Positions 4,485 through 45,875 of a stretch of 64,000 bases of DNA are shown here, one piece after another. The stretch covers positions 70,711 to 134,710 of the forward strand of contig CAZRJH010000004.1 in assembly GCA_964600575.1 (NCBI GenBank), written 5' to 3'. Source of the stretch: an uncultured Gammaproteobacteria bacterium. Its GTDB lineage: Bacteria > Patescibacteriota > Microgenomatia > UBA8517. Each line of letters begins with the position of its first letter. The first letter of the stretch is position 1. A program made the translations under genes and the position numbers. Below the pieces are notes generated by a model. That model searched no databases. It had not been told where the DNA came from and saw nothing but the letters and a program-made list of their open reading frames with translations.

Positions 4485-4486
4485 AT

Positions 4487-20497: not shown

Positions 20498-20514
20498 TCA
20501 AGCTGAATTATATA

Positions 20515-21240
20515 TTAATTTTTTTGAGCCAAGACTATTACTGATGTGCCAAATGGAAAGTTGATATATTTAAACAAATAGGCCTCCAAGTTGATAATCC
20601 ACAAGAATATTGTATTTATAATTTTGTTTGTTTCGAATACATCAGAGGTTTCGGATTTAAACAGATTGTCTAATATTCTCCTTTTTAATAGTACTACAGG
20701 GAATAGTGACATAAAGATATAACTGGACCTTACTATCTTAAAGTTTTGAGAAAGAATTATTTTTTCCATATCACTTTTTGTATAGCGTGCTTTTCCTTGA
20801 GTTGCTATGTCGTGGTTTCCTGCAAGAAAGGGGAATGCGGAGTCGGTTATTAAAAGATATCCTTCTCTTTTTAGTACCTTAAATGCATTTTTAATTACCG
20901 TTCGCTCATCACTTATATTTTTATGATAAAGAACATCAAAAATTGTTATTAGGTCAAACTTCGGTTTTTTAAAAGGAATTCTGTCAACCGAACTTATGAG
21001 TACTTTTAATCCTCTTTTTCTTGCTAAATTAGCCGAATATCGGGATTTTTCTATACCTGTAACATTCCCAAACCTTGTAAGATGTTTAGTTAAGCCACCA
21101 GTACCCGAGCCTAAATCTAAAATTTTTGCGTCTTTTTTGACTAAATCGGAAAGTATTTGATTTATAAAAAACCTTTTACCGATGAACCAGAAATGTTTGT
21201 CTTCTACCCTGGCCATCATTTCGTATTCTCTTTTTTTCAT
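20515..21240 (-). CDS. Class I SAM-dependent methyltransferase
   Basis: 241 aa. Motif I ILDLGSGTGGLTKHL, motif II/post-I LITIFDVLYH, motif III REGYLLITD. Confidence 0.85.
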   Translation of the reverse strand: MKKREYEMMARVEDKHFWFIGKRFFINQILSDLVKKDAKILDLGSGTGGLTKHLTRFGNVTGIEKSRYSANLARKRGLKVLISSVDRIPFKKPKFDLITIFDVLYHKNISDERTVIKNAFKVLKREGYLLITDSAFPFLAGNHDIATQGKARYTKSDMEKIILSQNFKIVRSSYIFMSLFPVVLLKRRILDNLFKSETSDVFETNKIINTIFLWIINLEAYLFKYINFPFGTSVIVLAQKN

Positions 21241-21346
21241 AGTTAAAATTATATCATTAGCCTCAGTTTGTGTATTTTTTATATATAATAAGTCCGATAA
21301 TAAGCCTAAATATTTTTATTATGGATAAAATATTTGTTTATTTTTA

Positions 21347-22303: not shown

Positions 22304-22373
22304 TTTAAAAAATTCAATATATCGAATATACGAATATGTTAATATTTCAAGTTAAACCTTGGAGGAAGCCAAG

Positions 22374-23612
22374 TCAATAGTTTTGTGTATTGTAACCGTC
22401 GACTTTGTAAGTTTTGTCTGATGCAATGTTTTTTTGGTTTGAACTGATTTTCGGGCATTGCACATTCAGACAGACCAAAAAGACTTTATCTGGATTTTGG
22501 ACAATTTCGGAAAAAGACTCGGTGCTAAAGTTATCTATTCGAGTAAATTTCCGGCCTGTATGTTTTTCAATCTGGGCCCATAAACCGGCCTCAATAAGAG
22601 TATTTCTTTTGTTATCTTTTAAAACTAGCATTTGAAAACTCGTTGCTTCTGAATTCAACACTATATTTTCGGAAATATCCCAGATTTTTCCTTGTGAAAT
22701 AAAATTGTAATCAAGAAATGCCCCTTTGCTTATCAATAGAATAAAGATAGGTATTATTAATATTTTTCCCAAGGCTGTTAAATTTGATCTTGTGAGTATT
22801 CCGACTGAAATTGTAATAATTAAAAAATTAAAAGCAGTTAAATATCGTAAAAACCCTCCCGTGTCATTTAGACTACCTGAGTTGAACGCGACGAATTCTG
22901 ACTCCGATTTTAAAAAATCCAACATGACGGGGTAATAACAAATCGTTAATAGTAGAGCGGATGCCAGTAAGCATCGGAGAATAGATTTTTCTTTCTTAAT
23001 AAGCAAAAAAAGAAAATATAGGCCAAGATACAAGTATCCTGCATTGTAGATGATGCCCGCAGTCGTCAAAGACAAAGTAGCGACTATATGAAAGTACTGG
23101 TTGGCTTCCTTTTTTGTACCTAAAAGTAAACCAAAAAATATTAATGGCAAATTTAAGTAGGATCCCCAGTAGGCTGAGGCAATGTCAAGAAAAAATCTGG
23201 ATTCGACTAAGGAAAATATTGAAACAAGACTGCCAAAGTAGCCGAATTTATTTTTTAGAATTAAAAAAAGTAAAAACAGTGAGTAAGACAGTATTAAAAT
23301 GTTAGCAACAAAGAATATTCGAATATCGTCCCAAAGCCTAACTAAATATGAGCACAAATAGAAATAAATTGGGCTCGATAATCTGGTATTGGTAAAATTG
23401 GAAGGCGGGCCTCTGGCAATTTTTTCTTCTGAAAAAGCTAGATGACGACCAACCAAGTAGTCGCGCCAAGTATCTTCGCGGATTGTATCAAAATCGTTTA
23501 TATAAGTTGCAAAAATCGAAGATATTCTTGTAACTATTAATAGAGCCAACAAAATAGGCAAAATCCGGAGCAGGATTTTGATTATTTGTTTCATTCCGTT
23601 TGTACTATCCAC
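22374..23612 (-). CDS. Polytopic membrane protein (≥8 TM) with C-terminal soluble domain; function unknown
   Basis: 412 aa, strongly hydrophobic over residues 1-300. Its 5' end overlaps the 3' end of the giant gene by 22 nt. Confidence 0.6.
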   Translation of the reverse strand: MDSTNGMKQIIKILLRILPILLALLIVTRISSIFATYINDFDTIREDTWRDYLVGRHLAFSEEKIARGPPSNFTNTRLSSPIYFYLCSYLVRLWDDIRIFFVANILILSYSLFLLFLILKNKFGYFGSLVSIFSLVESRFFLDIASAYWGSYLNLPLIFFGLLLGTKKEANQYFHIVATLSLTTAGIIYNAGYLYLGLYFLFLLIKKEKSILRCLLASALLLTICYYPVMLDFLKSESEFVAFNSGSLNDTGGFLRYLTAFNFLIITISVGILTRSNLTALGKILIIPIFILLISKGAFLDYNFISQGKIWDISENIVLNSEATSFQMLVLKDNKRNTLIEAGLWAQIEKHTGRKFTRIDNFSTESFSEIVQNPDKVFLVCLNVQCPKISSNQKNIASDKTYKVDGYNTQNY

Positions 23613-26600
23613 CAGTTAAAGTTGGTGTCTTCCTGGATCGGGCTTGTGAATCCTACTTTAAAGTATCCGTTGCTCTTCTCTTTTACATAAAGAACATTGT
23701 TCAAGGTGTTCGAAGTAGGAGTGATATATACAAATGTATAGTCGTTAACTTTGGGATTTCGGATTGTTATGTCTGTGGTCCCGCCCGGAAGAACGCCTTT
23801 GCCTACGGTGGAATTTGTGCTTATCTCACCGTTAACTACGGCTGAGCTTGTTGCATCTTGGGCCCCTGCAACTATTATTTGCGAAACATTAACCGAGTTA
23901 AATGTTGCGCTCCCGGAAGCGTCAATTGTAGAAACCGAGTTTCCGGTTGTGTCTTTGATAGCGAGTGTAGATGTCGAAACTGTTCCGGCTACATCCAAAT
24001 TGCCAGCGATACTTACATTTCCGTTTGTGTCAATGTTAACTAAGCCTCCCATTATTTCCACCGGGGCCAAAGCCAAATCTTGAATCTTAAGAGGCTCGGA
24101 TAGTGTGTCGATTCCTGATGCTGCAATCACCAAATCGTTTCCGATTGTTATTGTTTGCGTAACCGAAAGGGAATTAACCGCTGCTTGATTGGTAACATAT
24201 AGATCCGATACCGCAATCTGTCCGAAAGATGCAGAGGATGTTGCTGTCTGTGTGTTCCAGCTTTGCGATTCAGACAAAAGAACTTGATCTGCCTGAACCT
24301 GGGTTAAAATATCTCTTATCTGGTCGAGGTTGTCGGAATGAATGTTTCTTGCATAAAGTTCACCCGAGAAAGTTGCGTCTCCTGTTGAGGATATGGATGC
24401 AACTTCGGTTCCTTCGATGTTTGTTATGGCCAACTCTCCACTTTCTGTTGCACTGCCCAGCTGAATCGTAATATCTGTTTCCTCTGCAAGCGGGGAAATA
24501 AGTTTGGTTTTAAAATCAGGTGCAACTAGCTTCATAGAAATCAAAGCATTCTCTGCCGCAATTTGTGTCGCCTTCAAACTGTCGGTTGCAATTTCCTGAG
24601 CTTGGAGTGCGCCTGTTTTAATGTTGGCTGCTACAAAATTACCAACAGCTTCTATTCCTGCAACAACTTGTCCGCTTGCATCCTTAACAACATAGGTTGC
24701 AATCTGTGCTCCGTCTGCGACCTTTTCTGTCACAAAGTCGGTTAAGGCTGTTACTTGCAAGTTTTCTGCGAAGTTGGTTACAACATCTGCACTATTAATT
24801 ATAAAACCGACAGCTTCGCTTTCTCTTGTATTCAACCAGTTTTCTGCATCAAACCTTGGGCCTGTTAGTCTGTATGAGATTTGTGCAGGTAGGGCAGAGT
24901 AAATATTTAGTCTTCTGTTTTCTGAATCAACTTGATACCAAACTTTTGTCGGGAAGTTGGGAGTCAAAAGTGCCACAAGTTTATCGATATTTTCGTTTAT
25001 ATTTGTTGTTTTTCCGAATAGCCATAGATCACTTCCTTCGGGTTGAGCATTAAAGTCGATTGATGTTCTGTAACCGATTCCCGGGATATATTCTGAAGTC
25101 GCGAGAGATCCGGTTACTTCTTCTTTTACTCCAACCAAACCTCCCATGTATGTTGCATATTTTTTACCGTTGATTGTGTATGGAGGGTCGACGGTACCGA
25201 CATCAATTTTGCCCGTTCCGCCGCCTACGGTAAGATCCGTACCCGAATTGTCACCCAAGGTGACATCGCCGTTATTGGCAACTCTGAATTTAAGTACGCC
25301 GGATGCCGAAGCGACTATCAAATCTCCGCCTTTGGCATTGTTAACGGCCAATGCTGGTTCACCAACGTTTGCCTGGTTATCAATTATCCAGCTTCCCGCT
25401 GACAAAGTGTTCTCCAGAGCGGAAGTTGTTGCACAGGCGGCGCCGGATTGACCGGTACAAAGTAGTATAGATGCTGTTCCATTGGTATTGGATATGTTTT
25501 TGCCGTCTAGATAAAGTATACCGTCAACTTCCAAGTCTTCATTTATAAGAACGTCACCAGCGCTGGCTAGTGCGTGGTCGCTTGTGATATCGGAAGTTGC
25601 AAATCTTGAGAAGGTTCTGGTTGTTAAGCCGGTAACACTACCCACAAGCAGATTTTTTGTTACACCCAGAACACCTGCAGTTCCCGCATCGTAAAGCTGG
25701 GCTAGGGTGTTGGTTCCGTCGTTGAGTGTCAATGTTCCGCCGTCTCCAATTGTAACCAGGGGAGTAGTATCAACAAATTGGAGGTCTGTATCCCAACCCG
25801 ACCCGATTATGAATGCCGTTTCTGTACCTGCCCCAGCGCCTGAAAGGTTGGCGATATTTACACCGTATTCTGTTATTCCGCTCCCTGCAGATGTGGGGTT
25901 AACTTTGAATCCGGAAACCTGACAGGTGCCCCCAGAACATCCGGTTAGTGTGGGGGCTGCAACATTAAACATATTGAATTCTTTTGTTCCTGTTGCTCCT
26001 GTTGTGTTCAATGTGCCCGTAATATTTATGCCGTTAACGATTGAGTTGCCGGATGTATTGGAGGAAGTGTTGCTTAAGGCGAGGTTCACAAGTGATCCGG
26101 TTGCTGCTGTTGTCTCGGTGTATATTGCCGAGTTGATATCAATTACATTACCGGTAGTTAGTGCGTTACTGGCAACGATATTCATAAAGTCTCCGGTGGT
26201 TAGATTTGCAGAATCGGTATATGTCATGGCGTTGGCAGTTGTTGACGGGCCAAAGTAGTTGTAAGTAAAGTTGCCGTTACTATCAACAGACATTGCTGGT
26301 GTTTGGATTGTTTCACCGGTTGTTGAGTTTGTGGTGTTGTTGTAGGTGTTGTATACCTGGAAGACATTGTTAACTGTCATTGCATTTTTAACCGCAGTCG
26401 GACTGGTGAGTGTGGCCAAGGTGGAGTAGAGAGATGAATTGGAAGTTTCCATCCAATTTTGTGTTACGGCAGAACCGTTTTCTCCTGTTATAGAAAGTGT
26501 AGCTTTTGTTCCACATTCATCTGAGCCCGAGTTGTAGGCGATACAAGCAGATCCGGAAATGGATATAGACGATACATCGTTTGATGAGTATTGAGTATTG

Positions 26601-29600
26601 GTGTCAGTAGTCTTTGTTGTATTAGCCGTGCCGTCGTAGAGATCAATTGCTGAATCGCTATCAACCCCAATCACTGTAACTCCACCGGTATTTGTGGTTG
26701 CGTCGTTTATACCTACGTAAATTGCACGGTTACTATTGTCCAAGGTTACTGCAGTAACCTTGTTAGATGTGGTTGTACCCCCAGATGCGTTACCCATCAA
26801 TCTTTGATAGTTATCAACTCCTGTCACTCCTGCTATGCGGGAGGCCGTGTGGTTAAGTAGTGCTCTGGAACCTACCTGGTACATTCTTTTTACTTGGCTT
26901 ATCGATAATGCTTCTGCTGTTATAGACATATCGTCCAAATCTCCATTCCAGAAATTTGCACCTGTTGCACAGGCGGCTCCTGTTGAACAATCTGCGCCAA
27001 CTCCCATTATTACTCCAGTGCCTGTTAAAGTTCCCGTTGCGGTTAACGATACATCAGAGGCCGCAAGTTGTCCGTCGATATAAAGTGAAATTGAACTTGT
27101 GCCATTTTTTACAGCTACCAAATGGTGCCAGGTGTTATCCAAATAGGTTGTTGTGGTTGTAGCTTGGTCGTCTGTGGGATCGGCATTGGTCCATGTAGCA
27201 TCATCATCGATGCCAAATGAGATTGTACCTGTAGAGTTCATCCAAACTTTCCAACCTAAAACCGCAGCCGGGGTGGTGTTATAAGTGTGATCGATTATTA
27301 CATCGTCGTTGGGTGCTGCCGGGGGAGCAGAAACTGAATGCTTAAACCAGGTTGATACAGAGAAAGAACCTGTTCCAAAGTCGTAATCGCTGTCTGTGTC
27401 GCAGGTGTTGTCGTTGTTGGCATCGGAACAGAAGAAATCATCGGTGTTATCAAGCGTAACACCTGTTCCGCGGACACCCGAACCGTATGTGAATCCTGTT
27501 CCGTTGGCGTTGTCTGCATCTAAAACATTTCCCTTTACGGAAATATCTGTAGCATTGGCGTTGTCTGCAATTGATCCGCTTCCGTTGAAAGGCCACATTG
27601 CTCTAACATCTCCCGTCATGTCATCGCCTATATAATCCTTTGTGTAGTATTTTGCAGAACCGTTGCTTTCGTCTCCTTTTTTGTCGTTAACAACAGACAA
27701 ACTTCCGGTTGTATCGTTGGTTGCTGATGCAACATAGATGGTGTCTGATTTACCGTCAACTGCGGATGTTCCTGTTGCTACAAAAAGTGCATCCGGAGCA
27801 ACATTTATTATTTGTGCTGAAGAGAATAAATAAGGACCGGCGACAGCAGCTGCACCTGCGATTTTTACCCCCGTTTCGTCCCAGGCAACATCGGGGGTTC
27901 CGTTTAATTCGCTTCCGGAGTCCGTTACAACAGAGTTCCATCTTTCCAGCTGTCTTGATGTACCGTTTAATGCGTACAAGTCTCCGCTGGTGCTAAAGAA
28001 TGTGCTTTGGTACACATCGCTTGTTACATCTGAGTAGCTGTAAACAGTATTAGTTGTTTCGTTAATTACAGAGACCCCAGTGTTATTTGCTACTGCGACA
28101 AATGTTTTGCCGTTGAAAGTGATTGCATGGATGTCTTCTACCGTGCCGTTAGATATGGGGGAGGACGGGCCTGTTGTCCAGGCAACGGTTGAATTTCTGT
28201 TTGCAATGTTTTTGTCGCCAAAGTAATCGTCGGTAGCGTTGTATCTTTGAGCTCTATCGTTTTTGAAATCTATAACATAGAGTCCGCCAGAACCGCCGTT
28301 GTTTCCAAGATAAACTTTACCGTTAAGGGCAAAGATTGAAGAACCAGTGGATCCTGTCGAAGGCCCGATCATTTGTTCGGTTGCTCCCGAGCCCTTGGCA
28401 AACTCCATCCACATTGTGTTGTCTTTGGCATCAAAAATATACAAGCGTGAGCCGGAGACGGTTAATATTGCCTTTTGGGGGAATTCTCGTTTTCCGCATC
28501 GGTCGTCGCTGTCTAAAGTACATGCAGTTCCGATAGCTTGATCTATCGTTTCGTTATACCAAGATGATGTTTTGGCGCGTTCATCGTTTGTCCATATACC
28601 GCCATCTGTATCTTTAGTTGTGTCATAAACATATGTGTTAACTGCGGTTGTTGTAATTGCTTTTTCGTCTTTCTGGCCTGCAATGTTCTCGTCTGAGTTT
28701 GTCCAGGCAAATCCTGTCCTGTTTGCATCACTTGCTAAAGCCAAGAAGTTACCGGATGTGAGAGATGTGCCTGAAACATCAATTATGTTTTGCGTAGTTG
28801 CTCCGCTATTTACATTTACAGTTGTTGCAACTGCGGTATTTCCGACATTTACTGTATCCGCAGAAGTTCCGCCTGTGGCTATATTTATTGTGTCGGCTCC
28901 TGTACCTGTTGCAATGTTTAATGCATTCCCGCCGTTACCAGTGCCAAGATTTATCGCTGTATAAGCGGAGTTACCTGTGCCCAAATTAAGGGCGGTTGTC
29001 GCAGCTCCACCCAAAGACAAAGTTGTTGCATTTGTATTGAATATAGTGGCGGGACCCGATCCTGTTGTGGTTATGTCGCTTCCGTTTACTGCAGCATCAC
29101 CGTTGGCTGTTATGTTTCCCGAAGCGTCAACTACAAACATTGTTGCAAGAGAGTTGGTTGCATAGATAAAGTTACCTGTGAACGAACCTCCGCCTGTATT
29201 GTCAAAATCAAAGAATAAACCGTTTCCTGTAAAGTTTTGTGGACCGGATTCTCCCAACTTGATTATATTACCCGAAGTTATGGCGGAAGCTGTTGCCTCG
29301 AATAGATTGCCTGTTGTTATAACGGTTGAGTTGATCTTTGCTATATCACCGATCGCATTCTCAATCCCGAATACTTGGAATGCGGAATTGGTCGCCGTTC
29401 CGCCGATTGCCAAATCATAAGTTGAGTTGGCAGGGGAGAGAATTTTGTTTTGCAATTGCCACCAACCTTGAGTTCCCGTTGTTGCTGTTGTTGTGATAGC
29501 ACCCGAACATGTAAGGTTGCCGTTGGCGCCGTCCATGGTACAACCTGTATCACCACTACCACCCTCGAATAGTATAGAAGCTGTTCCGCTTCCTGTTGGG

Positions 29601-35600: not shown

Positions 35601-38600
35601 ATTATTTTGTTATTTAACTGCCAATATGTTGCATTAACAGGGCAGTTAGCCCCGCTACTATCACAGACATTAAACCCATTTTGTACAAACGCATTTGCAT
35701 ATACATTATCCCAAGGTAGGGAGGAACTTCCCAAATCATTTGTTCCTGTTGTTGTTATCGGGATCAAGTCACTATCCTGGGCAACTCTGGCTGTAAAAGT
35801 TATAGCGTCTGTTATTGCATTACCAAGTGTTGTATCTGCGTTAACCTGGAGCGAATTTGCAACTGTTGTTGTTCCTGTTGCTGCCCCCAAAGATACTGTT
35901 GTTGCTGCACCTCCTATATTCAAAGTTGTGGCGTTGGAATTAAATAGTGTTGCAGTTCCTGTTGAAGTTGTTGTTAAGTCGGCCCCGTTTACCGCAACAT
36001 CACCTGCAAATGTGCCCGCGTTTGCATTTATGTTTCCGCTCCCGTCAAAGTAATATGTAGTGCCTCCACCCACAGAATATCCTGCAGATGATTGTAGGTA
36101 GTTGGCAACACCTGTAAGTGTTATGGAGTTGGGGAGATTGATTACTCCTGTTGTTGTAACATCGCCGTTTGAGCCAACAGTAAACCTGGTGCTACCGGCA
36201 TTGTCAAACTTTACAAAGTTACCCGTAAAGCTTCCTCCGCCTGTATTGTCAAAATCTGCATAAATTCCATTGCCTGTGAAGTTTTGATTTCCGCCTTCAC
36301 CAAGTTTTACTAAATTACCCGAGGTTATTGCACTTGCTGTTGCACTCAAAACATTGCCTGTTGTGATTTCGCTAGAAGTTAAACTGGCCACACTTCCGGA
36401 CGGTGTTTCTAATGCAAATGCCTGGAATTTTGCCGATGAGGTAGCGGTTCCTCCTACTGCCAGATCGTGGGTAATGTTGGCAGGGGAGAGAACTTTGTTT
36501 TGTAATTGCCAATAGTTCACTGATGAGCTTGCAGGACATCCTGTTCCTGTTATGTCACATACAGCATTTCCATTCTGGTAAAGATTTGTTCCATAAATAT
36601 TGGCCCATTGCAGGGAAGCGCTGCCCAAGTCGTAATTGTTGTTGGTTATCGGCAGCACGTTTGTATTAACTCTTCCGTTGAACGAGACTCCGTCGGTGGT
36701 TGCATCACCCAGAGTTGTATCACCTTTAATAAGAAGTGAATTATTTAGTGTTGTGGTGCCGCTTGTTGCACCAATATTTATCGTAGTTGCAGCACCCGCA
36801 AAGTTAAGTGTGGTTGTGGTTGCATTCAAGAGTGCAAAAGATGTTTCATCTGTTGTTATCGAAGCGCCGTTAACAGCCAAAGCATTGTTGACGGTTGTTG
36901 TTCCGCTCCCTGCACCCAACCCCAAAGTTGTTGCATTTGTGAATAGGTTTGCAGTAGTTTGAGTGGTTGTTAGGTCACCTCCGTTAACTGCAACATCTCC
37001 TGCGGCTATTACATTGCCAGAAGCGTCAACGCTGAACTGAGTTGCCCCCGCATTATCAAACTTTACAAAGTTACCTGTAAAGCTTCCTCCACCAGTGTTA
37101 TCAAAATCTGCATAAATTCCATTACCTGTGAAATTTTGATTTCCACCTTCTCCAAGTTTTATTAAATTACCCGAGGTTATAGCAGAAGCAGTTGCTTCAA
37201 AAACATTTCCCGAGGTTATAACGCTCGAAGTAATCTTGGCTAAATCTCCGGTTGCTTTTTCTACTCCAAATACTTGGAATGCCGAGCCTGTTGCGCTGCC
37301 TCCTATTGTCAAATCATAAGTTGTATTAGCAGGGGATAGAACTTTGTTTTGTAATTGCCACCAGCCTTGTGTACCCGAGGTTGCTAGCGAAACTATACTG
37401 CCGGAACAAGTAAAATTACCGTTACTGCCGTCTAATGTACAACCCGTGTCTCCCGATCCTCCCGAAAGTGTAACAACTCCTGCAGCACCGTTCGGCCCTA
37501 TGTTAAGTGTATTGGCTGCCCCCGCAAAATTAATTGTGGTTGCGTTTGTGTTAAAAAGTGTTGCGCTTGAAGCCGAAGTTGTTAAGTCGCCTCCGTTAAC
37601 TGCAACATCTCCGTTAAAAGTGCCGATATTTGCATTTAGATCACCGCTTGATGAAAAGTTGAATGTGTCGCTTCCGCCTACGGAAACTCCTTGGGAAAGT
37701 CTAAGAAAATTACTTACTCCTGTTACTGTGTTGGTGTTGGGAAAAGTGAGTGTACCCACAGTTGAAAGGTTTGCACCGTTTGCGGTGAGGGCTGCAAGTC
37801 CTCTTGAATTTATTGCTACATTACCTGCAGTTGAGCCGCCAAGGATAAGATCTGCCGCATTTGTGGTTGTTAAGTTTCCGTTACCGGTTAAGTAAGTTGC
37901 AACATTAGCAACCGAACCGGATATTGATGCCGTTGGAGTTCCGCCGTTTACTCCTGTAAATGCAAATTTGGCAGAGTCAGTTGCGTTTGATCCGATTAAT
38001 ACATCCACGGAATTGTTTTTGGGGAAGAGTGCGCCGTTACTTTGGGTCCAGAAAATAGAAGCAGCAGCTGCTGCTGAAGGGTCAACCCAACTTAATGTTC
38101 CGCTGCCGTCTGTTTGTAAAATATATCCAGAACTTTGTGATCCGGGCCAGGTGTATGGGATTCCGCCAAAAGTTGTCGTTCCACTTACCACTAAATTGTT
38201 ATTAACGGTTGTCGATCCTGTACCGGCACCTAGGCTTATTGTTGTTGCGCCGCCGCCGACGTTTAATGAAGTTACGCCGCTATTTACCAAGTTAAATGTT
38301 CCGCTTGTGGAAGTTATGTCACCACCATTAACCGCCAGATCACCGGCAGTTGTTGTATTACCGTTTGCAACATTAACGCTGAAGTTTGCACCACCTACGG
38401 TAAGATTTGCACCTGTTACATCGACCCCGTTTGTAGCATCTACATTTCCTGCGATAGTAACTTGGCCTGTTGAATTCAAACTTACGGCCCCTGTTCCGCT
38501 TGTGGAGAGGGTTAATCCTCCTGTTGCGATATCTGTATTTGCGTCGAGTGTCATATTGTCTTTGAACTGGGCAAAATCAAATGAGTCGTTGGCAACCGAA

Positions 38601-40564
38601 ACATTACCCGAGCTAACTGTAAAGAAGTTGGGATCAAAAGATGCTACACCGACAGTTGATGTGGTAGCATTTGCACCCGTTACTGTAAGAGTGCTGCCTG
38701 ATTGAGATGTTGTGATACCGTTTGAACCAACTATCGTTTGAGTTCCGCCGAGTGCAATTGCAGAGCTTCCCGAATCTCCTGCAAATGTGATCGAGTTATT
38801 TGCAAGTTCTGTGTTAGATACACAACCTGTACAAGTTATTTCGGAAGCAGTGATAGTTCCTGTTCCCGAGAAGGTAAGGGAAGAGCCTGTTCCTACAACC
38901 ATGGCAGCTGTAGTATTTGTTCCACTTGTTAAATCAGCAAAAGATCCGGAAAAAGAACTTGTCCCTGTTGCAACTAAAACCCAAGTTGTTCCGTCCCAGT
39001 AATAAATTTTATCGTCGGTTGAGTTGTAAACAATCGATCCTTCTCCTATGGCCGAAGGATTGCTTGTGAATCTTCCGATTTGTACTTGGCCGTTAAATAT
39101 GGCGTTACCCGTATTTACCTTAAGTGCGGCGGCATCGTTCCAGCCGTCGTATCTATTAAGTACCAAAGTAGAATAGCTGGAGTTTGCGGTTGTCGGTTTT
39201 CCTCGTTCATCCAAAGTTAAAGTGAGTAGATCGTTAAGTGCTCCTCCCGTTGCCGGCTTTTTGATTATAGAAGCGTAATCTCCGGCACCTTGGTTAATTG
39301 TAAAATTACCCGAGGTTTGTGAATAACCTGTGATGTTTTCTAGCGCACCTCCGGAAGTCAGTCTTTGTGTACCTCCTGTTGATATATCGTTTTTAACGAA
39401 TAAGTCGTCACCGATTGTTATGTCACCAGCGCTAAACGTGTTGCCTACAGCATCTATTGTGAATTTAGATGTCATTTTTGGTGCACCTGATTGCAAATTA
39501 ACTAAGTAATAACCAGTTGAGTTATTTGGCACCATTCCGTAGTAGAGTGATCCACTTGTAAGATTTGGTCCTTGAACGTTTAACAAATTACCCTTGTTAG
39601 CTTCAAACAAAAAATGAACATAACCTTTGCCGTCCGGGTTAACTTCTATTATGCCGTCGCTACCCTCGGCGGTTTTTAGTGTGAGTGCCTGGCCTTCCAT
39701 TAAGAAGTTACCGTTTTTGGCTTTTATAGCAGGGGATTGCCCGGCCAGCAATAAAGTTCCGTTCTCGTCTAATATGGGAACTGTTAAAGGCCCTGCACCT
39801 GTATAAGGATCTGCTGCAAGGTATCCGTTAAGATTCGTAGAAGTATTAGCTGTGTTAACAGGAATTCTCATTACTCCCGAGGCAGACCCGATAGAAGGCT
39901 CCAGGAATAGCTGATCGTTTTGGAAGAAGAGATCTGTTGGAACTTGGTCTAATGATATCAAAGCAGAACCATTTGCATCAGTTTTGACTTCTTTAGCGGG
40001 GGAAGAGTAGAGAACTTCGCCGCCTGCAGATTTGTTAAAGAGTTTAAAAGATAAAGTTTCGCTACCAACTCTAGGGCTCCCATTGCTGTCTGTTAATGTC
40101 AGCTTGGCAAAAAGATTCCAGTAAGAATTTACCGCAATCTGTGCGGGGATTGCACTTGGGCTAGCCGTCTTTGTGGGGGCTGCAGGATTGTCTGTTCTTG
40201 TTTGTAAATTGGCAACAGGAGAAGTCTCTGCTGCAGGTGTAATTGTGAACGGAATTGCAAATTGTAATTTCCAAGTTAGGAGGAATAAAACAACGATTAA
40301 GGCTCCCGTTAGAGTTAAGGTTAAAAATATTTTAGGGTTCTTTTTCTTGACCGGGGTAACAACTGTGTAGGGATTGGAATTTTCTACAACAGGCCTTGGT
40401 TGGCTTAAAGGATTTTTGTCCAAATGACCTTGTCCTTCGGCCCAGTCAAAAAATCTGTTCAATGAAATTTGTTTTCTTTTGAGAGTTGCAGGGGAGGATG
40501 TTGTAGCAATCTGTTCTTGGTATGCCTTAACTAATTCGGGTGATACGTTGGATAATTTTGCCAT
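23591..40564 (-). CDS. Giant (5657 aa) membrane-anchored surface protein
   Basis: A 16974-nt ORF with no stops. Cytoplasmic N-terminus (aa 1-55) has an integrase-SAM-like motif (ATLKRKQISLNRFFDWAEGQGHL). TM near aa 79-98 (IFLTLTLTGALIVVLFLLTW). Then 5500+ aa of Thr/Gly/Asn/Ser-rich repeats, for example DVAVNGGDLTTTQTTANLF...GSGTTTVNN repeated more than 10 times and NAITDNITFTGRVAQDSDLIPITTTGTNDLGSSSLPWDNVY six times. Also Cys-pair motifs GCT...TC, a LamG-like segment, a β-propeller-like segment, and a C-terminal domain shared with the 50397..63632 product. Confidence 0.85.
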   Translation of the reverse strand: MAKLSNVSPELVKAYQEQIATTSSPATLKRKQISLNRFFDWAEGQGHLDKNPLSQPRPVVENSNPYTVVTPVKKKNPKIFLTLTLTGALIVVLFLLTWKLQFAIPFTITPAAETSPVANLQTRTDNPAAPTKTASPSAIPAQIAVNSYWNLFAKLTLTDSNGSPRVGSETLSFKLFNKSAGGEVLYSSPAKEVKTDANGSALISLDQVPTDLFFQNDQLFLEPSIGSASGVMRIPVNTANTSTNLNGYLAADPYTGAGPLTVPILDENGTLLLAGQSPAIKAKNGNFLMEGQALTLKTAEGSDGIIEVNPDGKGYVHFLFEANKGNLLNVQGPNLTSGSLYYGMVPNNSTGYYLVNLQSGAPKMTSKFTIDAVGNTFSAGDITIGDDLFVKNDISTGGTQRLTSGGALENITGYSQTSGNFTINQGAGDYASIIKKPATGGALNDLLTLTLDERGKPTTANSSYSTLVLNRYDGWNDAAALKVNTGNAIFNGQVQIGRFTSNPSAIGEGSIVYNSTDDKIYYWDGTTWVLVATGTSSFSGSFADLTSGTNTTAAMVVGTGSSLTFSGTGTITASEITCTGCVSNTELANNSITFAGDSGSSAIALGGTQTIVGSNGITTSQSGSTLTVTGANATTSTVGVASFDPNFFTVSSGNVSVANDSFDFAQFKDNMTLDANTDIATGGLTLSTSGTGAVSLNSTGQVTIAGNVDATNGVDVTGANLTVGGANFSVNVANGNTTTAGDLAVNGGDITSTSGTFNLVNSGVTSLNVGGGATTISLGAGTGSTTVNNNLVVSGTTTFGGIPYTWPGSQSSGYILQTDGSGTLSWVDPSAAAAASIFWTQSNGALFPKNNSVDVLIGSNATDSAKFAFTGVNGGTPTASISGSVANVATYLTGNGNLTTTNAADLILGGSTAGNVAINSRGLAALTANGANLSTVGTLTFPNTNTVTGVSNFLRLSQGVSVGGSDTFNFSSSGDLNANIGTFNGDVAVNGGDLTTSASSATLFNTNATTINFAGAANTLNIGPNGAAGVVTLSGGSGDTGCTLDGSNGNFTCSGSIVSLATSGTQGWWQLQNKVLSPANTTYDLTIGGSATGSAFQVFGVEKATGDLAKITSSVITSGNVFEATASAITSGNLIKLGEGGNQNFTGNGIYADFDNTGGGSFTGNFVKFDNAGATQFSVDASGNVIAAGDVAVNGGDLTTTQTTANLFTNATTLGLGAGSGTTTVNNALAVNGASITTDETSFALLNATTTTLNFAGAATTINIGATSGTTTLNNSLLIKGDTTLGDATTDGVSFNGRVNTNVLPITNNNYDLGSASLQWANIYGTNLYQNGNAVCDITGTGCPASSSVNYWQLQNKVLSPANITHDLAVGGTATSSAKFQAFALETPSGSVASLTSSEITTGNVLSATASAITSGNLVKLGEGGNQNFTGNGIYADFDNTGGGSFTGNFVKFDNAGSTRFTVGSNGDVTTTGVINLPNSITLTGVANYLQSSAGYSVGGGTTYYFDGSGNINANAGTFAGDVAVNGADLTTTSTGTATLFNSNATTLNIGGAATTVSLGAATGTTTVANSLQVNADTTLGNAITDAITFTARVAQDSDLIPITTTGTNDLGSSSLPWDNVYANAFVQNGFNVCDSSGANCPVNATYWQLNNKIISPSISSYDLAIGGTATGSAFQVFGIENAGGDIAKLNSTVITTGNVFEATASAITSGNLVKLGTGGDNGNFTGNGIYMDFDNTGGSSFTGNFLRFDNATTTRFTVDASGNVVAAGDVAANSGNLTTTASTGNLFNSNATTLNVGGAATTISIGNASGTTTINNASTVVAGNLTVQGTTGITESGAGADLTFSGTGTHSISNSNSTSALTIDSGNSANLQLNNSSTGDVEIAGGSAATGCTIANATGNLTCAGDVAVNGGDLTTTQTTANLFTNATTLGLGAGSGTTTVNNSLSVNGGTLTTNQTTFNLVNSTATTINFASAATTLNVGPTGASGSVAISGGSGDTGCTLDGTTGNFTCSGNITSTATSGTQGWWQLANKILSPANSTYDLTVGGNATGSAFQVFGIENAGGDIAKLNSTVITTGNVFEATASAITSGNLVKLGTGGDGHAFSGNAIFADLDNTGGGNFTGNFLRFDNSGATLFTVNSTGDVVTAGDVAVNGGDLTTNQTTANVFLNATTLGLGAGSGTTTVNNALGVTGNTNLNGDSIFGNAITDNITFTGRVAQDSDLIPITTTGTNDLGSSSLPWDNVYANAFVQNGNAVCDASGANCPAGAGYWNQSLGALYPTNNSTDLLIGGNATASAKFAFTNVAAGIPTATIAGSVANVATYLTGNGNLATTNMADLTLGGATTGNVVINSRGSTALTANAANLTASGTLTLPNSNTLTGVSGYVQTSGGYSVGGGTTFHFDSSGNIVASDVAVNGGDITSTGALNITPGGALVVGATGQTSTLQGSTLSLTSNGGGNDITLTSADQIIFDAGTTIELQDNTNITGNLDVSGTLTSGGSNAFQIDSTGNISSTGTTGISLSGNDADFTFSGTSNHDITASSGTLRLGATTLIGAITGNNQNVTGIGDLSVDGNTTLNGDSTIGNAITDNITFTGRVAQDSDLLPITTTGTNDLGSGSLPWDNIYGVNLFQNGNAVCDASGNNCPAGAGYWAQALGALYNVNNTVDLLVGSNATTSAKFAFINVASGTPTASVSGSVANVATYLTGNGNLATTNMADLTLGGSSTGNVVINSRGSAALTANGANLTATGTFTLPNSNTLTGVSGYLQNSNGFSVGGGTTFHFDSSGNIVASDVAVNGGDITSTGALNITPTGALVAGVTTQPATLQGSTISITSNSAGNDISLTSADQIILDAGTTVEIVDNTNITGNLDVSGTLTSGGSNAFQVDSTGNISSTGTTGISLSGNDADFTFSGTSNHDITASSGTLRLGAFTLLGAVTGNGQNVTGIGDLSVNGNTTLGDAITDSITFTGRVAQDVDLLPITTTGTNDLGSASLPWDNVYANAFTQNGFGVCDSSGTNCPAGSLYWQLNNKIISPANSTYDLTIGGTATGSAFQVFGVETAGGDIAKLNSTVITTGNVFEATASAITSGNLVKLGTGGDNGNFTGNGIYMDFDNTGGSSFTGNFLRFDNAGATVLTVNSAGNIVTSGDLAVNGGDITSSGALNITPGGALTVGVTGQTITLQGSTASLTSNGAGNDITLTSADQVILNAGGTIELQDNTNVTGNLDVSGTLTGGTGDAFQIDANGNISTTGTTGVTLTGVDSDITFATGAGSHDITASAGTLRLGAFTLLGAVTGNGQNVTGIGDLSVNGNTALGDAITDNITFTARVAQDSDLIPIGTTGTNDLGSGSLPWDNIYADAFTQNGFAVCDSSGANCPAGASHWALLNQTLYPSNQTYDVVVGGNSTSSAKFLAFGIENTNGGVVKLNSNTITTGNVFEATASAITTGNLVKLGSGGDGHAFSGNAIFADLDNTGGGNFSGNFLRFDNAGATYYTVDSTGNISTAGTTGQTFSGNAAGISFTGTGVHSISNSQSGSILRLDSGNSSALQLNNISAGDVEIAGGSAATGCTIANATGNLTCAGDVAVNGGDLTTSQTTGNIFTNATTLGIGGATGTTTVNNSLAVNGASISTDETSFSLLNATATTINFGGAATTFNIGPTGSGTASILFEGGSGDTGCTMDGANGNLTCSGAITTTATTGTQGWWQLQNKILSPANSTYDLAIGGTATNSAFQVFGIENAIGDIAKINSTVITTGNLFEATASAITSGNIIKLGESGPQNFTGNGLFFDFDNTGGGSFTGNFIYATNSLATMFVVDASGNITANGDAAVNGSDITTTGSGPATIFNTNATTLSLGGAATTALNLGTGNSAYTAINLGTGNGGNALNIATGTGADTINIATGGTSADTVNVGNTAVATTVNVNSGATTQNIIDVSGTSLTSGNFLALASDANRTGFAWTNSDENIAGQKDEKAITTTAVNTYVYDTTKDTDGGIWTNDERAKTSSWYNETIDQAIGTACTLDSDDRCGKREFPQKAILTVSGSRLYIFDAKDNTMWMEFAKGSGATEQMIGPSTGSTGSSIFALNGKVYLGNNGGSGGLYVIDFKNDRAQRYNATDDYFGDKNIANRNSTVAWTTGPSSPISNGTVEDIHAITFNGKTFVAVANNTGVSVINETTNTVYSYSDVTSDVYQSTFFSTSGDLYALNGTSRQLERWNSVVTDSGSELNGTPDVAWDETGVKIAGAAAVAGPYLFSSAQIINVAPDALFVATGTSAVDGKSDTIYVASATNDTTGSLSVVNDKKGDESNGSAKYYTKDYIGDDMTGDVRAMWPFNGSGSIADNANATDISVKGNVLDADNANGTGFTYGSGVRGTGVTLDNTDDFFCSDANNDNTCDTDSDYDFGTGSFSVSTWFKHSVSAPPAAPNDDVIIDHTYNTTPAAVLGWKVWMNSTGTISFGIDDDATWTNADPTDDQATTTTTYLDNTWHHLVAVKNGTSSISLYIDGQLAASDVSLTATGTLTGTGVIMGVGADCSTGAACATGANFWNGDLDDMSITAEALSISQVKRMYQVGSRALLNHTASRIAGVTGVDNYQRLMGNASGGTTTSNKVTAVTLDNSNRAIYVGINDATTNTGGVTVIGVDSDSAIDLYDGTANTTKTTDTNTQYSSNDVSSISISGSACIAYNSGSDECGTKATLSITGENGSAVTQNWMETSNSSLYSTLATLTSPTAVKNAMTVNNVFQVYNTYNNTTNSTTGETIQTPAMSVDSNGNFTYNYFGPSTTANAMTYTDSANLTTGDFMNIVASNALTTGNVIDINSAIYTETTAATGSLVNLALSNTSSNTSGNSIVNGINITGTLNTTGATGTKEFNMFNVAAPTLTGCSGGTCQVSGFKVNPTSAGSGITEYGVNIANLSGAGAGTETAFIIGSGWDTDLQFVDTTPLVTIGDGGTLTLNDGTNTLAQLYDAGTAGVLGVTKNLLVGSVTGLTTRTFSRFATSDITSDHALASAGDVLINEDLEVDGILYLDGKNISNTNGTASILLCTGQSGAACATTSALENTLSAGSWIIDNQANVGEPALAVNNAKGGDLIVASASGVLKFRVANNGDVTLGDNSGTDLTVGGGTGKIDVGTVDPPYTINGKKYATYMGGLVGVKEEVTGSLATSEYIPGIGYRTSIDFNAQPEGSDLWLFGKTTNINENIDKLVALLTPNFPTKVWYQVDSENRRLNIYSALPAQISYRLTGPRFDAENWLNTRESEAVGFIINSADVVTNFAENLQVTALTDFVTEKVADGAQIATYVVKDASGQVVAGIEAVGNFVAANIKTGALQAQEIATDSLKATQIAAENALISMKLVAPDFKTKLISPLAEETDITIQLGSATESGELAITNIEGTEVASISSTGDATFSGELYARNIHSDNLDQIRDILTQVQADQVLLSESQSWNTQTATSSASFGQIAVSDLYVTNQAAVNSLSVTQTITIGNDLVIAASGIDTLSEPLKIQDLALAPVEIMGGLVNIDTNGNVSIAGNLDVAGTVSTSTLAIKDTTGNSVSTIDASGSATFNSVNVSQIIVAGAQDATSSAVVNGEISTNSTVGKGVLPGGTTDITIRNPKVNDYTFVYITPTSNTLNNVLYVKEKSNGYFKVGFTSPIQEDTNFNWWIVQTE
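30400..36750 (-). repeat. In-frame tandem super-repeat (~1.1 kb units, at least 6 copies) inside the minus-strand giant gene
   Basis: The module DAITDNITFT(G/A)RVAQDSDL(I/L)PITTTGTNDLGS.SLPWDN(V/I)Y...NG..VCD.SG.NCP recurs at about 30.45-30.64, 31.56-31.70, 32.64-32.83, 33.79-33.96, 35.64-35.82 and 36.52-36.70 kb. Between copies, WQLQNK(I/V)LSPAN.TYDL..GG.ATGSAFQVFG(I/V)E and FEATASAITSGNLVKLG...FTGNGIY.DFDNTGG..FTGNF recur. Confidence 0.8.
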
Positions 40565-40570: not shown

Positions 40571-41098
40571 TTAGTGATTAATTTCGAAGTTTCCTTTGTT
40601 TTCATCGAGCCAGCTTAAAAACTGTCTTACATCTGAGACATAGTTTTTGAGAGTGCTTGAGCTTACCTTTTCAGCCTCCAAAAACACTTTAAAGTCGTCG
40701 ACTATATCAAAAGACATCTTTGGAGCTGGGCGGTTCTGTGCAATGTTTTCTATCCCGGTTGTGAAATCAGAATTTACGATTTGGGTTGCAACCATAAACC
40801 TGCTTAAGTGTCTAAGTGTCGAGAGTCTTCTATTCACCGACCCTATTGGCTGGCTGTTTTCGATCATGTAGTTTTTGTACTCCGTGGCAATGTTTTTGTT
40901 GAGAAAGGGAACTGCTTCTGTAAGTGTTTCGACATACGACCCGTAAGACCTAAGACGGAGGATTAACCAACCCAGAAAATGAGACAAATCGCTTCTGTAG
41001 TTTTTGTGCGATTTTGGAGTAACGCCCAAAGTATCAAGATATTTAGAAAACTCTTTGCGGATGATATCGTTATCGATTTTGGGCATTTTTGTAATCAA
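40571..41098 (-). CDS. Stand-alone protein with two tandem phage-integrase N-terminal SAM-like domains and no catalytic domain
   Basis: 175 aa. Repeat 1: PKSHKNYRSDLSHFLGWL. Repeat 2: SSSTLKNYVSDVRQFLSWLDENKG. Compare the XerC/XerD N-terminus (NTLxAYRRDLxxFxxWL). No R..HxxR..Y tyrosine-recombinase catalytic region follows. Confidence 0.72.
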   Translation of the reverse strand: MITKMPKIDNDIIRKEFSKYLDTLGVTPKSHKNYRSDLSHFLGWLILRLRSYGSYVETLTEAVPFLNKNIATEYKNYMIENSQPIGSVNRRLSTLRHLSRFMVATQIVNSDFTTGIENIAQNRPAPKMSFDIVDDFKVFLEAEKVSSSTLKNYVSDVRQFLSWLDENKGNFEINH

Positions 41099-41599
41099 AG
41101 CTAAATTAGACGAATTAGACTGATTAGACTATTATTAAAAAGCTGGAGGAGCCTGTCAAGAGGCTATTAGCAACATAAAATATTCATTACTTTACGATTA
41201 TTTTCACAGTGTATGTAGTATAATTACCGCATTCAATACACGCACAATTTTTGTTAAATGATATATTTAAGAATACCCGTATAACAGCAAAATATACCTA
41301 AAAAATGATACAAATCTAGGCACGAAGCTTGTTTTGCGGAAAACGGCGGTAATTATTTACTTTCAAAAATACTTGCGGAAATGGAACCTAAAAAGAGGAG
41401 TGTAACCGGTTTTTAACACACAATTCCTTAATAAATTACAGGATATACACTTAAGTTCAATTAATCTCAATAAAAGAGATAATTAGCACTCGAGTTTTAT
41501 TTTTGCTAATAAAAAATAGTGTCGTTTCGTTCCAATCTTTTGGGAATTATTTTAAAAATGAAGCTATTTATATTTGAGCTTGAAATTTTTTATTAAAGG

Positions 41600-45865: not shown

Positions 45866-45875
45866 ACATAACTCT

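Follow-up and report, generated by a model that had tools for sequence, protein, structure and literature searches.

Much of bacterial diversity belongs to the Patescibacteria, and a host-attached life is presumed for the majority of them. To our knowledge, few of the molecules behind this attachment have been identified apart from type IV pili. Giant surface proteins are attachment candidates of a kind already described in this group: the Absconditabacteria epibionts Vampirococcus lugosii (PMC8080830) and Strigamonas methylophilicida (PMC13059738) encode membrane- or signal-anchored proteins of 1.4 to 4.2 kaa with WD40, concanavalin A, and other domains, which were proposed in these studies to be host recognition and attachment fibers. 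The Nanohaloarchaeota likewise include an obligate episymbiont with giant surface proteins, which were named SPEARE proteins (PMC6642349), and laminin-G-type domains were reported in related work.

Here we analyzed a 64,000-nucleotide stretch of DNA (the window) that encodes two paralogous giant proteins, giant 1 and giant 2 (Table 1), with an emphasis on the longer one. SPEARE proteins are reportedly defined by serine protease, adhesion, and restriction endonuclease domains; they are archaeal, unlike giant 1, in which Pfam and NCBIfam scans found no serine protease or restriction endonuclease domain of the SPEARE type. The Absconditabacteria giants resemble giant 1 in that they too come from Patescibacteria with reduced genomes and are very long, anchored proteins with interaction domains. 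Giant 1 differs from them in being longer and in belonging to a family defined by a propeller-LamG core and found across the Microgenomates and Parcubacteria, and its cytoplasmic SAM-like module goes unmentioned for the Absconditabacteria giants in PMC8080830 and PMC13059738. With moderate confidence, we favor the explanation that giant 1 is a single-pass surface fiber of a Microgenomates-type member of the Patescibacteria, belonging to this propeller-LamG family and serving as an adhesin or spacer with a split DNA-binding-type module.

Table 1. Features of the giant 1 locus and position of giant 2 (window coordinates; aa, residues of the protein concerned)
Feature	Coordinates	Strand	Remarks
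Promoter-like TTGACA-N17-TAATAAT and leader with three GTCTAAT repeats	41099..41170	-	precedes small ORF
Small upstream ORF, 175 aa from TTG	40571..41098	-	likely Met start 4 codons in
Lone in-frame TAA between small ORF and giant 1	40571..40573	-	sequence reading
Giant 1 ORF	23591..40564	-	ATG start, stop codon included, 5657 aa
Cytoplasmic tail, aa 1-55, second half of split SAM-like (integrase core-binding type) domain	40400..40564	-	
Sole TM-like segment, aa ~78-100	40265..40333	-	hydropathy scan; KKKNPK on N side
Membrane-proximal nonrepeated ectodomain, aa 110-600	38765..40237	-	weak head-like matches only
Repeat zone, aa 601-3935	28760..38764	-	chunked BLAST and HMM mapping
Collar module, aa 2200-2268, ITFTGRVAQDSDLIPITTTGTNDLGSSSLPWDNVYA..VCDASGANCP	33761..33967	-	one of six
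Other five collars	36524-36721, 35630-35836, 32621-32827, 31499-31705, 30431-30637	-	
Paired-Cys motif, aa 1986-2016, GGSGDTGCTLDG..GNFTCSG	34517..34609	-	one of five
Other four paired-Cys motifs	37394-37486, 34841-34933, 29822-29914, 29495-29587	-	
Beta-propeller block, aa ~3976-4324	27593..28639	-	predicted core structure
LamG/concanavalin-A-like jelly roll, aa ~4339-4558	26891..27550	-	Pfam and core model
Thr/Ser/Asn-rich region, aa 4570-5099	25268..26857	-	
C-terminal distal region, aa 5100-5657	23594..25267	-	
Giant 2, paralogous ORF, 4411 aa	50397..63632	+	10 kb from giant 1

As giant 1 is rich in repeats, and as related repeat modules occur in public data mainly as fragments on contigs of ~1 kb, its integrity deserves scrutiny. 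A sequence-only reading of this DNA had described a single 17-kb gene for a 5,657-aa protein and had worried that it might be an assembly chimera. The ATG-started ORF is intact, with no internal stop in its translation, and the identical protein is present in public clusters as an unnamed singleton. Its internal DNA repeats are only 65 to 85% identical, with a longest exact repeat of ~95 nt, and paralogous repeat copies are separated by a dS of 0.9 to 1.6 with a dN/dS of 0.09 to 0.18. Further, an independent MAG (L002) carries a collinear orthologue that is 82% identical over ~4,930 codons, its sequence stopping short of the N-terminus, with few indels, a dS of ~2, and a dN/dS of 0.06; individual repeat copies are ~90% identical to their orthologous counterparts there. 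We therefore regard the chimera concern as largely removed. That giant 1 is an artifact of repeats that collapsed or expanded in assembly, or a pseudogene cut short at the TAA that precedes its start and falls within a SAM-like domain, is exceedingly improbable and already largely refuted, given the limited repeat identity, the collinear orthologue under constraint, and the same domain split, with differing junctions, in three other genomes (see below). Although GC content climbs from 37% to 44% at giant 1, the rise sits in GC2 (0.52), whereas GC3 (0.35) is the same as that of the neighboring genes; we therefore rejected a horizontal origin and consider giant 1 a native gene.

The translation bears out the Thr/Gly/Asn-rich character noted earlier (T, 14.6%; G, 12.9%; A, 10.3%; N, 9.8%; S, 9.6%), and all sequence motifs quoted by that reading are found in it. 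The transmembrane (TM) segment is predicted from a hydropathy scan, which gave a single TM-level stretch in the entire protein, with TM-level windows starting at aa 76 to 91. Residues 1 to 75 have a pI of 9.8 and no cysteine, whereas the remaining 5,548 residues have a pI of 4.05. Together with the basic residues flanking the TM segment, this asymmetry in charge and pI implies an N-in/C-out orientation, consistent with the proposal of one TM segment followed by a huge extracellular part. The N-terminal TM anchor also sets giant 1 apart from adhesins of the RTX, LapA, and Bap types, which are type I secretion substrates with RTX repeats and a secretion signal at the C-terminus and with tandem Ig-like (BIg/Cadherin) repeats, and no HemolysinCabind, Big, or Cadherin match was obtained in giant 1 with Pfam.

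Repeats in giant 1 are restricted to aa ~600 to 3935. HMM mapping recovered 17 units of ~38 aa (GDVAVNGGDLTT...), in agreement with the units of about 40 aa reported earlier, along with 10 “head” modules, six “collars” (VCDxSGxNCP), and five paired-Cys motifs of the GDTGCTLDGSNGNFTCSG or ATGCTIANATGNLTCAG type; three full E blocks of ~150 aa also lie in this zone. At a higher level, ten head-stalk-collar segments start at aa 838, 1068, 1351, 1647, 2027, 2270, 2650, 3024, 3380, and 3701. These are the super-repeats that had been put at about 370 aa, but they span 230 to 380 aa, and just four of the ten measure 356 to 380 aa. Likewise, the paired-Cys motifs exist, but pairing extends well beyond those quoted: all 36 cysteines are on the extracellular side, in 18 pairs spaced 3 to 11 residues apart. 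PDB sequence searches with one super-repeat and with a collar-plus-head profile found no relative.

Beyond the repeats, the structure predicted for the core (pLDDT of 84) shows both a toroidal, multi-blade beta-sheet propeller and a beta-sandwich jelly roll, so that the propeller-like block and the lectin-like LamG domain proposed earlier are both recovered. The latter matches Pfam Laminin_G_3 (PF13385) at aa ~4386 to 4558 with 58.7 bits (cutoff, 27.6; E = 9.4e-16), and the former has no match to WD40, Kelch, or other propeller families in Pfam at an E value of ≤0.01. Resemblance to the clostridial neurotoxin Hc-N lectin-like domain and to CBM40 or LamG modules is at the fold and domain level only, and giant 1, unlike these toxins, has no toxin translocation or catalytic domain. 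In the Thr/Ser/Asn-rich region that follows, the initial ~200 aa are common to 16 homologues, and the remainder is found only in the lineage of giant 1 itself. The distal region contains a conserved GTVDPPYTINGKKYATY domain (aa ~5149 to 5234), predicted helices, and a terminal beta domain (aa ~5579 to 5655) with the last residues FNWWIV. A conserved C-terminal domain, as the sequence-only reading had anticipated, is common to giant 2 (40% identity) and to 22 of 83 homologues. A PDB sequence search with the C-terminal region found nothing; its structure was poorly predicted (pLDDT of 61), with weak fold matches and a faint resemblance to tailspike C termini.

That resemblance raises the question of whether giant 1 derives from a phage tail fiber or prophage gene. 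Like tail fibers and tailspikes, it is modular, beta-rich, and rich in Gly, Thr, Asn, and Ser, with putative distal binding domains; some homologues are annotated as “tail fiber domain-containing protein,” and Peptidase_S74, a chaperone domain at the end of some family members, was found in homologues P0015 and P0072. However, giant 1 itself has neither an S74 domain nor a match to any PHROG tail fiber or other structural family (PHROGs and NCBIfam gave no match on its body); it is ten times longer than phage fibers, anchored in the cell membrane by its N-terminal TM segment, and native in GC3, and it sits in a chromosomal context flanked by housekeeping genes (LeuRS, ArgRS, and comEA/comEC) with conserved synteny to LeuRS. 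We thus consider a phage derivation highly improbable. Giant genes of other small-celled bacteria have also been linked to cell wall degradation, including a proposal for Omnitrophota (bioRxiv 10.1101/2023.11.21.568195). A role of giant 1 in lysis or predation, as the carrier of such an activity, appears only marginally less improbable; Pfam and NCBIfam scans found no enzyme domain in giant 1.

The propeller-LamG core (aa ~3960 to 4570) defines an unnamed Patescibacteria family and was covered by 78 of 84 relatives; at an E value of ≤1e-30, the family comprises 249 representatives of 50%-identity clusters, with members of 1.8 to >5 kaa. Like the rest of the family, giant 1 has an N-terminal signal anchor or TM segment, which may or may not be preceded by a cytoplasmic head. 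All 64 related genome loci are of the Patescibacteria type, and the relatives of the LeuRS are from Woesebacteria, Microgenomates, and other Patescibacteria, which upholds the earlier assignment to a small-genome bacterium.

If giant 1 is a fiber of this family, as we favor, its stalk of ~3,300 residues would have arisen by ancient duplication of a head-stalk-disulfide-collar segment into ten copies, each of which is now individually under purifying selection. The stalk would hold the propeller-LamG core and the conserved C-terminal domain away from the membrane, with the local Cys pairs serving as disulfide staples, and the protein may be glycosylated. On a partner or host cell, or on a substrate, the distal domains could then bind glycans or further structures exposed at the surface. 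Host attachment is plausible in view of this architecture and of the giant surface proteins published for other Patescibacteria. The analyses establish the integrity of giant 1, indicators of its topology, its module map, the core folds, its family membership, selection, and the conserved domain split; we infer adhesion, disulfide formation, reassociation of the split domain described below, and any DNA binding by giant 1.

The locus can also be read as encoding a structural envelope or coat protein that forms a layer for protection or spacing, comparable to an S-layer or glycocalyx, instead of a specific attachment device. The ectodomain is acidic and very rich in Thr, Ser, Asn, and Gly; genes of the glycosylation type (a PMT_2 GT-C, a GT2, a DegT aminotransferase, and a methyltransferase) are nearby; one locus holds two paralogous giants; and between orthologues the stalk repeats (~90%) are more conserved than the putative binding core. 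Against this, the LamG and propeller folds that define the family are typical of ligand binding, and the propeller, although within the family-defining core, is the fastest-evolving part between close orthologues (55 to 70% identity), which fits changing specificity. In addition, S-layer proteins tend to be abundant and much shorter than giant 1, and no SLH or S-layer domain was found with Pfam. A coat function is, in our judgment, unlikely. Among the other neighbors of giant 1, relaxed Pfam scans of the 412-, 318-, 128-, 392-, and 304-aa ORFs found nothing, and a scan of the window detected no tRNA. The possibility that giant 1 is the target of a diversity-generating retroelement was rejected, as no reverse transcriptase was present among the scanned window ORFs.

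The N-terminus of giant 1 had been described simply as a short cytoplasmic one; the tail is indeed predicted to face inward, but it proves to be the latter half of a SAM-like domain of the integrase type. The small upstream ORF consists of one full SAM-like domain and the first half of a second, the latter matching Pfam Phage_int_SAM_1 at residues 134 to 168 (E = 1.3e-10; profile positions 2 to 37), and it also matches XerC/XerD N-terminal families. After the TAA, two codons (TCA CCT) precede the giant 1 ATG at 40564. When the TAA is read through, the Phage_int_SAM_1 match becomes continuous over residues 134 to 222 (positions 2 to 81 of 83; 47.7 bits; E = 1.9e-12). The giant 1 N-terminus alone does not reach significance against Pfam SAM-like profiles, although its tail matches a phrog_1 integrase (E = 1.5e-4) and the N-terminus of homologue P0019 matches SAM-like profile positions 44 to 83. 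Such SAM-like domains form the N-terminal core-binding domain of tyrosine recombinases (XerC/XerD and phage integrases), a likeness that is found only when the small ORF and giant 1 are read together. The recombinase catalytic domain (PF00589, R-H-R-Y) is absent from the small ORF, the fused sequence, and giant 1, which therefore do not constitute a recombinase.

The order of LeuRS, small ORF, and giant recurs in three other genomes (L001, L066, and L067), where the domain is split at the same point by three different junctions, and we therefore rejected a sequencing error as the source of the TAA. Fused, two-domain SAM-like versions are found in homologues P0002, P0045, P0072, and P0082 and at six genome loci. 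No Shine-Dalgarno sequence was seen before the giant 1 ATG, so translation of giant 1 would depend on coupling or reinitiation. The leader of the small ORF is nearly the same in L067, and L001 and L066 share its TCTAAT repeats. In the fiber model, the basic 75-aa tail would supply the second half of the core-binding domain and the adjoining 175-aa ORF the missing first half plus one full domain; judging from these sequences, the two polypeptides probably reassociate, which would yield a fiber with one DNA-binding-type cytoplasmic module.

Giant 2 carries a different head. It consists of a MerR-type HTH at aa 1 to 50 (PF00376; 46.2 bits; cutoff, 28.2), a TM segment at ~aa 78 to 100, and a repeat-rich ectodomain, and it has in common with giant 1 one collar-plus-head module (collar copy at aa 1577 to 1645), an “INIATGGT...” block, and the C-terminal domain. 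The MerR_1 match covers just profile positions 2 to 45 of 69, ~25 residues separate the HTH from the TM segment, and neither a MerR C-terminal dimerization helix nor an effector-binding domain was found in giant 2. A dyad, TTGGACAT-N10-ATGTCCAA, which is unique in the window, lies in the stretch 50343-50384, 21 nt upstream of the giant 2 ATG, and recurs before a MerR-headed giant in L069, the sole match among 69 loci. Homologous giants bear SAM-like, MerR, or HTH_17-like repeat heads at the equivalent position, and 9 of the 20 members of at least 3,500 aa have such DNA-binding-type heads.

ToxR and CadC are membrane-tethered one-component regulators with sensor domains of ~100 to 250 aa and OmpR-type winged-helix heads. 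Giant 1 resembles them in having a cytoplasmic, N-terminal DNA-binding-type domain, a single TM segment, and an extracytoplasmic C-terminal part, but its ectodomain is 5,500 aa long, the heads are integrase SAM-like or MerR, and DNA binding is putative. A contact-sensing system resembling ToxR/CadC or Notch could accordingly be imagined, with the fiber as its sensor arm. Distal binding or pulling would change the state of, or proteolytically release, the SAM-like module (MerR or HTH in paralogues), and this module would then act as a DNA-bound regulator of genes, perhaps those of its own operon. Three types of DNA-binding-type heads at one position, their frequency in the longest members, the basic cytoplasmic parts, the recurrence of the giant 2 dyad before a second MerR-headed giant, and the conserved GTCTAAT repeats in the small-ORF leader all point in this direction. 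However, SAM-like domains are not known to act as regulators when they stand without a catalytic domain, the half-site spacing of the dyad differs between its two occurrences (10 nt versus 23 nt), and the leaders of both head types contain a TTAGAC-like core, which means that the heads need not read these sites. Moreover, the surroundings of giant 1 yielded neither a site-2 protease nor any other machinery for release, and most family members have no cytoplasmic head: a plain signal anchor is present in 46 of the 56 members with an intact N-terminus, which suggests that the cytoplasmic module is unnecessary for the basic role of the family. We therefore rate contact sensing as doubtful.

A still bolder and slightly less likely idea is that giant 1, the small protein, and the MerR and HTH heads of the paralogues represent an undescribed class of bacterial contact receptor, in which a fiber of several thousand residues, coupled via one TM segment to a DNA-binding module, would relay host contact directly to DNA; in giant 1 this module would be a tyrosine recombinase core-binding domain put together from two polypeptides. 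Our literature search, which included PMC11880426, found no membrane-tethered MerR or integrase-SAM giants in CPR bacteria. Were this idea true, genes might be regulated via leader elements such as the GTCTAAT repeats or the TTGGACAT dyad, or the nucleoid or incoming DNA might be tethered at the attachment site, beside comEA/comEC.

For the biology of the Patescibacteria, the locus provides a complete, independently corroborated example of the propeller-LamG fibers of this family, whose mapped modules lend themselves to separate expression. If the heads are inert, giant 1 would still be a well-documented, ordinary giant adhesin candidate. The recurrent DNA-binding-type heads and the conserved split domain, in turn, lead us to hypothesize that these minimal cells may link contact at their surface to the cytoplasm.

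The 17-kb gene picked out in the sequence-only reading is real: giant 1 is one intact minus-strand ORF (ORF listing), its translation contains no internal stops, and an orthologue is present at a related locus, L002. Thr (14.6%), Gly (12.9%), Ala (10.3%), Asn (9.8%), and Ser (9.6%) dominate its composition. Its GC3 (0.35) equals that of the neighboring genes; its overall GC is above theirs, and the excess sits in GC2, i.e., in amino acid composition. A 19-residue Kyte-Doolittle scan of the full length exceeded 1.6 at one stretch alone, in windows starting at aa 76 to 91, with KKKNPK on the N side of this stretch. Residues 1 to 75 are basic (pI 9.8) and lack Cys; the remaining 5548 residues are acidic (pI 4.05) and contain 36/36 Cys, every one of which belongs to one of 18 pairs with a spacing of 3 to 11 residues. 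Together with the single hydrophobic stretch, this pattern fits a type II membrane protein (N-in/C-out) whose predicted disulfides are local and extracellular. At 11 nt past the stop codon is a terminator-like hairpin with a T-run after it, located inside the sequence annotated as the start of the following ORF. Public data contain an identical 5657-aa protein, a singleton without a name, encoded on an NCBI contig of 145,915 bp.

Chunked self-BLAST limited the repeats of giant 1 to aa ~600 to 3935, and stalk modules were mapped with HMMs seeded from single copies. Based on this map, ten head-stalk-collar segments, each 230 to 380 aa long, follow one another along the protein ("head" here being a repeat module); the "about 370-aa super-repeats" described earlier hold for four of the ten segments and not for the overall range. 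The repeat copies have 65 to 85% DNA identity, the longest exact DNA repeat is about 95 nt, and dS between copies is 0.9 to 1.6 with a dN/dS of 0.09 to 0.18; these values mark the copies as old duplications under purifying selection and not as assembly artefacts. Sequence searches found no PDB relative of the stalk, whose ~40-aa units had been described earlier as β-helix-like. Its modules are rare in public data, mostly as fragments on ~1-kb contigs, which shows that assembly of such genes usually fails.

Searching one genome per GTDB species for related loci, we found 64, of which the best was L002, from a separate MAG. It aligns with aa 743 to 5657 of giant 1 in one HSP (5006 columns, 82% identity) with few indels, the biggest being a ~100-aa difference within one block, and a codon alignment of 4928 positions gave a dN of 0.12, a dS of ~2, and a dN/dS of 0.06. 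A collinear, constrained orthologue in a different MAG largely dispels the possibility, raised earlier, of an assembly chimera. As repeat copies are ~90% identical to their orthologous copies in L002 versus 50 to 85% to paralogous copies, the repeat order is older than the split between the two lineages, and the copies are not undergoing homogenization. The fastest-evolving part between the two proteins is the propeller (55 to 70% identity versus ~90% for the stalk); aa 4329 to 4478 beside it, including the first part of LamG, are 93% identical. The propeller block is the most conserved part family-wide and yet the most diverged between these close orthologues. Its fast evolution is compatible with shifting specificity.

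At the cytoplasmic end, the sequence-only reading had described a short N-terminus. A cytoplasmic-side tail is indeed present, but its part in a split domain had been overlooked. The final 35 residues of the small ORF ahead of giant 1 match only positions 2 to 37 of the profile for the SAM-like, integrase-type core-binding domain (Phage_int_SAM_1). This ORF shares the reading frame of giant 1, and one TAA separates the two (coding strand, ..AAT CAC TAA TCA CCT ATG GCA..). When the TAA was replaced by X, one unbroken match was obtained (residues 134 to 222, profile positions 2 to 81 of 83, E = 1.9e-12), and therefore the stop sits inside a domain. A sequencing error is rejected, since the same split recurs in three other genomes (L001, which is the P0019 locus, L066, and L067), with a junction of its own in each and always in the order divergent LeuRS, small ORF ending in the first half-domain, and giant starting with the second half. 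A recombinase catalytic domain is absent from both the small ORF and giant 1. In L001, a gene of the 23S_rRNA_IVP family (four-helix bundle) lies exactly between the small ORF and the giant.

Other family members carry further cytoplasmic heads. Two SAM-like domains are fused to the giant in P0002, P0045, P0072, P0082, and six genome loci, with the TM then at aa 200 to 360; a MerR-type HTH heads giant 2, P0015, P0073, P0107, and P0183; and others have two or three HTH_17-like repeats, which are weak matches (19 to 26 bits versus a cutoff of 27). Such heads occur in 10/56 members with intact N-termini in the first protein set and in 9/20 members of at least 3500 aa; among complete genome loci, SAM-like heads occur in 11/35 and HTH_17-like repeats in 2 further loci. 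A plain signal anchor is found in the majority of the family. Giant 2, in which 14/14 Cys are paired, has in common with giant 1 one collar-plus-head module and the C-terminal domain.

Upstream of giant 2, the dyad TTGGACAT-N10-ATGTCCAA lies 21 nt ahead of the ATG and occurs once in the window, with 0 occurrences expected by chance. Its sole other match in 69 loci is 24 nt before the ATG of a MerR-headed giant (L069), and a third MerR-headed giant (L068) has related half-sites. The half-site spacing differs, at 10 nt versus 23 nt (TTGGACAT-N10/23-ATGTCCAA), and the dyad is followed by GTTTT(T)AAA...TGCCCAAT. In different organisms, the element lies a short distance ahead of the ATG of giants with a MerR-type head. 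A conserved G.G mismatch speaks against the dyad forming a simple RNA stem. Ahead of the small SAM-like ORF is a promoter-like TTGACA-N17-TAATAAT with a leader containing three GTCTAAT repeats. L067 has almost the same sequence, and L001 and L066 also contain TCTAAT repeats. Both the dyad and the GTCTAAT leader elements are conserved candidate sites.

The propeller and LamG assignments made earlier are supported. The only Pfam matches in giant 1 were Laminin_G_3 (E = 9.4e-16) and Toxin_R_bind_N, which covered part of that LamG region, and PHROGs and NCBIfam gave no match to its body. The unique C-terminal third retrieved 83 proteins, with named homologues from Parcubacteria and Gottesman-, Moran-, Pace-, Doudna-, Woese-, and Torokbacteria; the propeller-LamG core is the common part (78/84 proteins), and the C-terminal domain is present in a subset. 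An exhaustive phmmer search with the core against 1.84 billion cluster representatives gave 2679 matches with an E value of at most 1e-3, 249 of them with one of at most 1e-30, including further giants of 5468, 4997, 4655, 4612, and 4604 aa. Complete members in genomes are mostly 1808 to 4629 aa, and two edge-cut genes exceed 5000 aa. Based on the named relatives of the LeuRS in the window (Woesebacteria, Microgenomates, and Patescibacteria, 53 to 56% identity), the source is a Microgenomates-type member of Patescibacteria. Many MAG records with this gene of Patescibacteria type, among them those of L002 and L004 to L010, bear the titles "uncultured Gammaproteobacteria," "Bdellovibrionales," or "Pseudomonadales"; the taxonomy in such titles is probably wrong or a placeholder, and the "Gammaproteobacteria" of L002 is evidently a placeholder.

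Among the neighboring genes, eleven ORFs without a Pfam match are mutual paralogues (about 20 to 53% identity) and form a tandem array of an uncharacterized anchored or secreted family. The region from 12115 to 23612 is possibly a surface glycosylation cluster adjoining the Thr/Ser/Asn-rich giant 1. Two genes downstream of giant 1 is a secreted protein without a family match, and DNA uptake genes lie between the two giants.

Features of the window and of related loci (window nucleotide positions unless a locus or aa is named)
Feature	Position	Strand	Description
Eleven-ORF array	236-12115, 17017-18195	+	330-500 aa, single N-terminal TM in each
8-TM protein	12115-13842		Further member of possible glycosylation cluster
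PMT_2-type GT-C	15002-16588
DegT aminotransferase	18187-19392
GT2	19353-20114
Methyltransferase	20515-21240
Secreted protein	21347-22303	-	318 aa, C-terminal half very Cys-rich
6-TM ORF	22374-23612		22-nt overlap with giant 1 3' end
Terminator-like hairpin	23559-23580	-
Giant 1	23591-40564	-	5657 aa, ATG start
Propeller, giant 1	27593-28639	-
Head modules, giant 1	aa 838, 1068, 1351, 1647, 2027, 2270, 2650, 3024, 3380, 3701 (starts)		n=10, two related types
Collars, giant 1			n=6, ..LGSxSLPWDNxYA..VCDxSGxNCP, each directly ahead of a head module
Paired-Cys motifs, giant 1			n=5, HMM mapping
~38-aa units, giant 1			n=17, HMM mapping
~150-aa blocks, giant 1			n=3 full copies, HMM mapping
Small ORF	40571-41098 (TAA 40571-40573)	-	175 aa, immediately upstream of giant 1, Phage_int_SAM_1 match
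Promoter-like sequence and leader	41099-41170	-	Counterpart in L067, ~2960-3022
comEA, comEC (+ MBL domain)	45236-47863	+	DNA uptake
Dyad	50343-50384		Match in L069, 1434-1482; related half-sites in L068, ~1440-1490
Giant 2	50397-63632	+	4411 aa; MerR-type HTH, single TM, repeat-rich ectodomain with own repeat families
L001 junction	L001 3575-3946 (23S_rRNA_IVP gene)		600 bp containing this gene
L066 junction			8-nt overlap, ATGTCTAA
L067 junction			17-nt overlap, ahead of 4655-aa giant

The idea of an attachment fibre is already established for Patescibacteria: this role has been proposed for the giant membrane proteins of Vampirococcus (1392 to 4163 aa; PMC8080830) and Strigamonas (PMC13059738) and, among archaea, for the SPEARE proteins. 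A candidate attachment or surface-binding fibre is likewise the best-supported reading of giant 1, reasonable but generic. It would be a membrane-anchored, disulfide-stapled modular fibre that keeps a lectin-type propeller-LamG core and the conserved C-terminal domain at a distance from the cell, and these distal domains would bind the surfaces of other cells. New here are the delimitation of the propeller-LamG family, the stable ten-segment stalk proven by the orthologue, and the all-paired Cys pattern; the most important new element is the set of DNA-binding-type cytoplasmic heads, split or alternative, of the giants. The cytoplasmic module suggests a role beyond passive anchoring. The product of the small ORF and the tail of giant 1 probably rebuild a SAM-like domain from two polypeptides. 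The repeated recruitment of DNA-binding-type heads to the same position suggests that the fibre may be coupled to DNA, by regulation or tethering, a reading that we consider unlikely.
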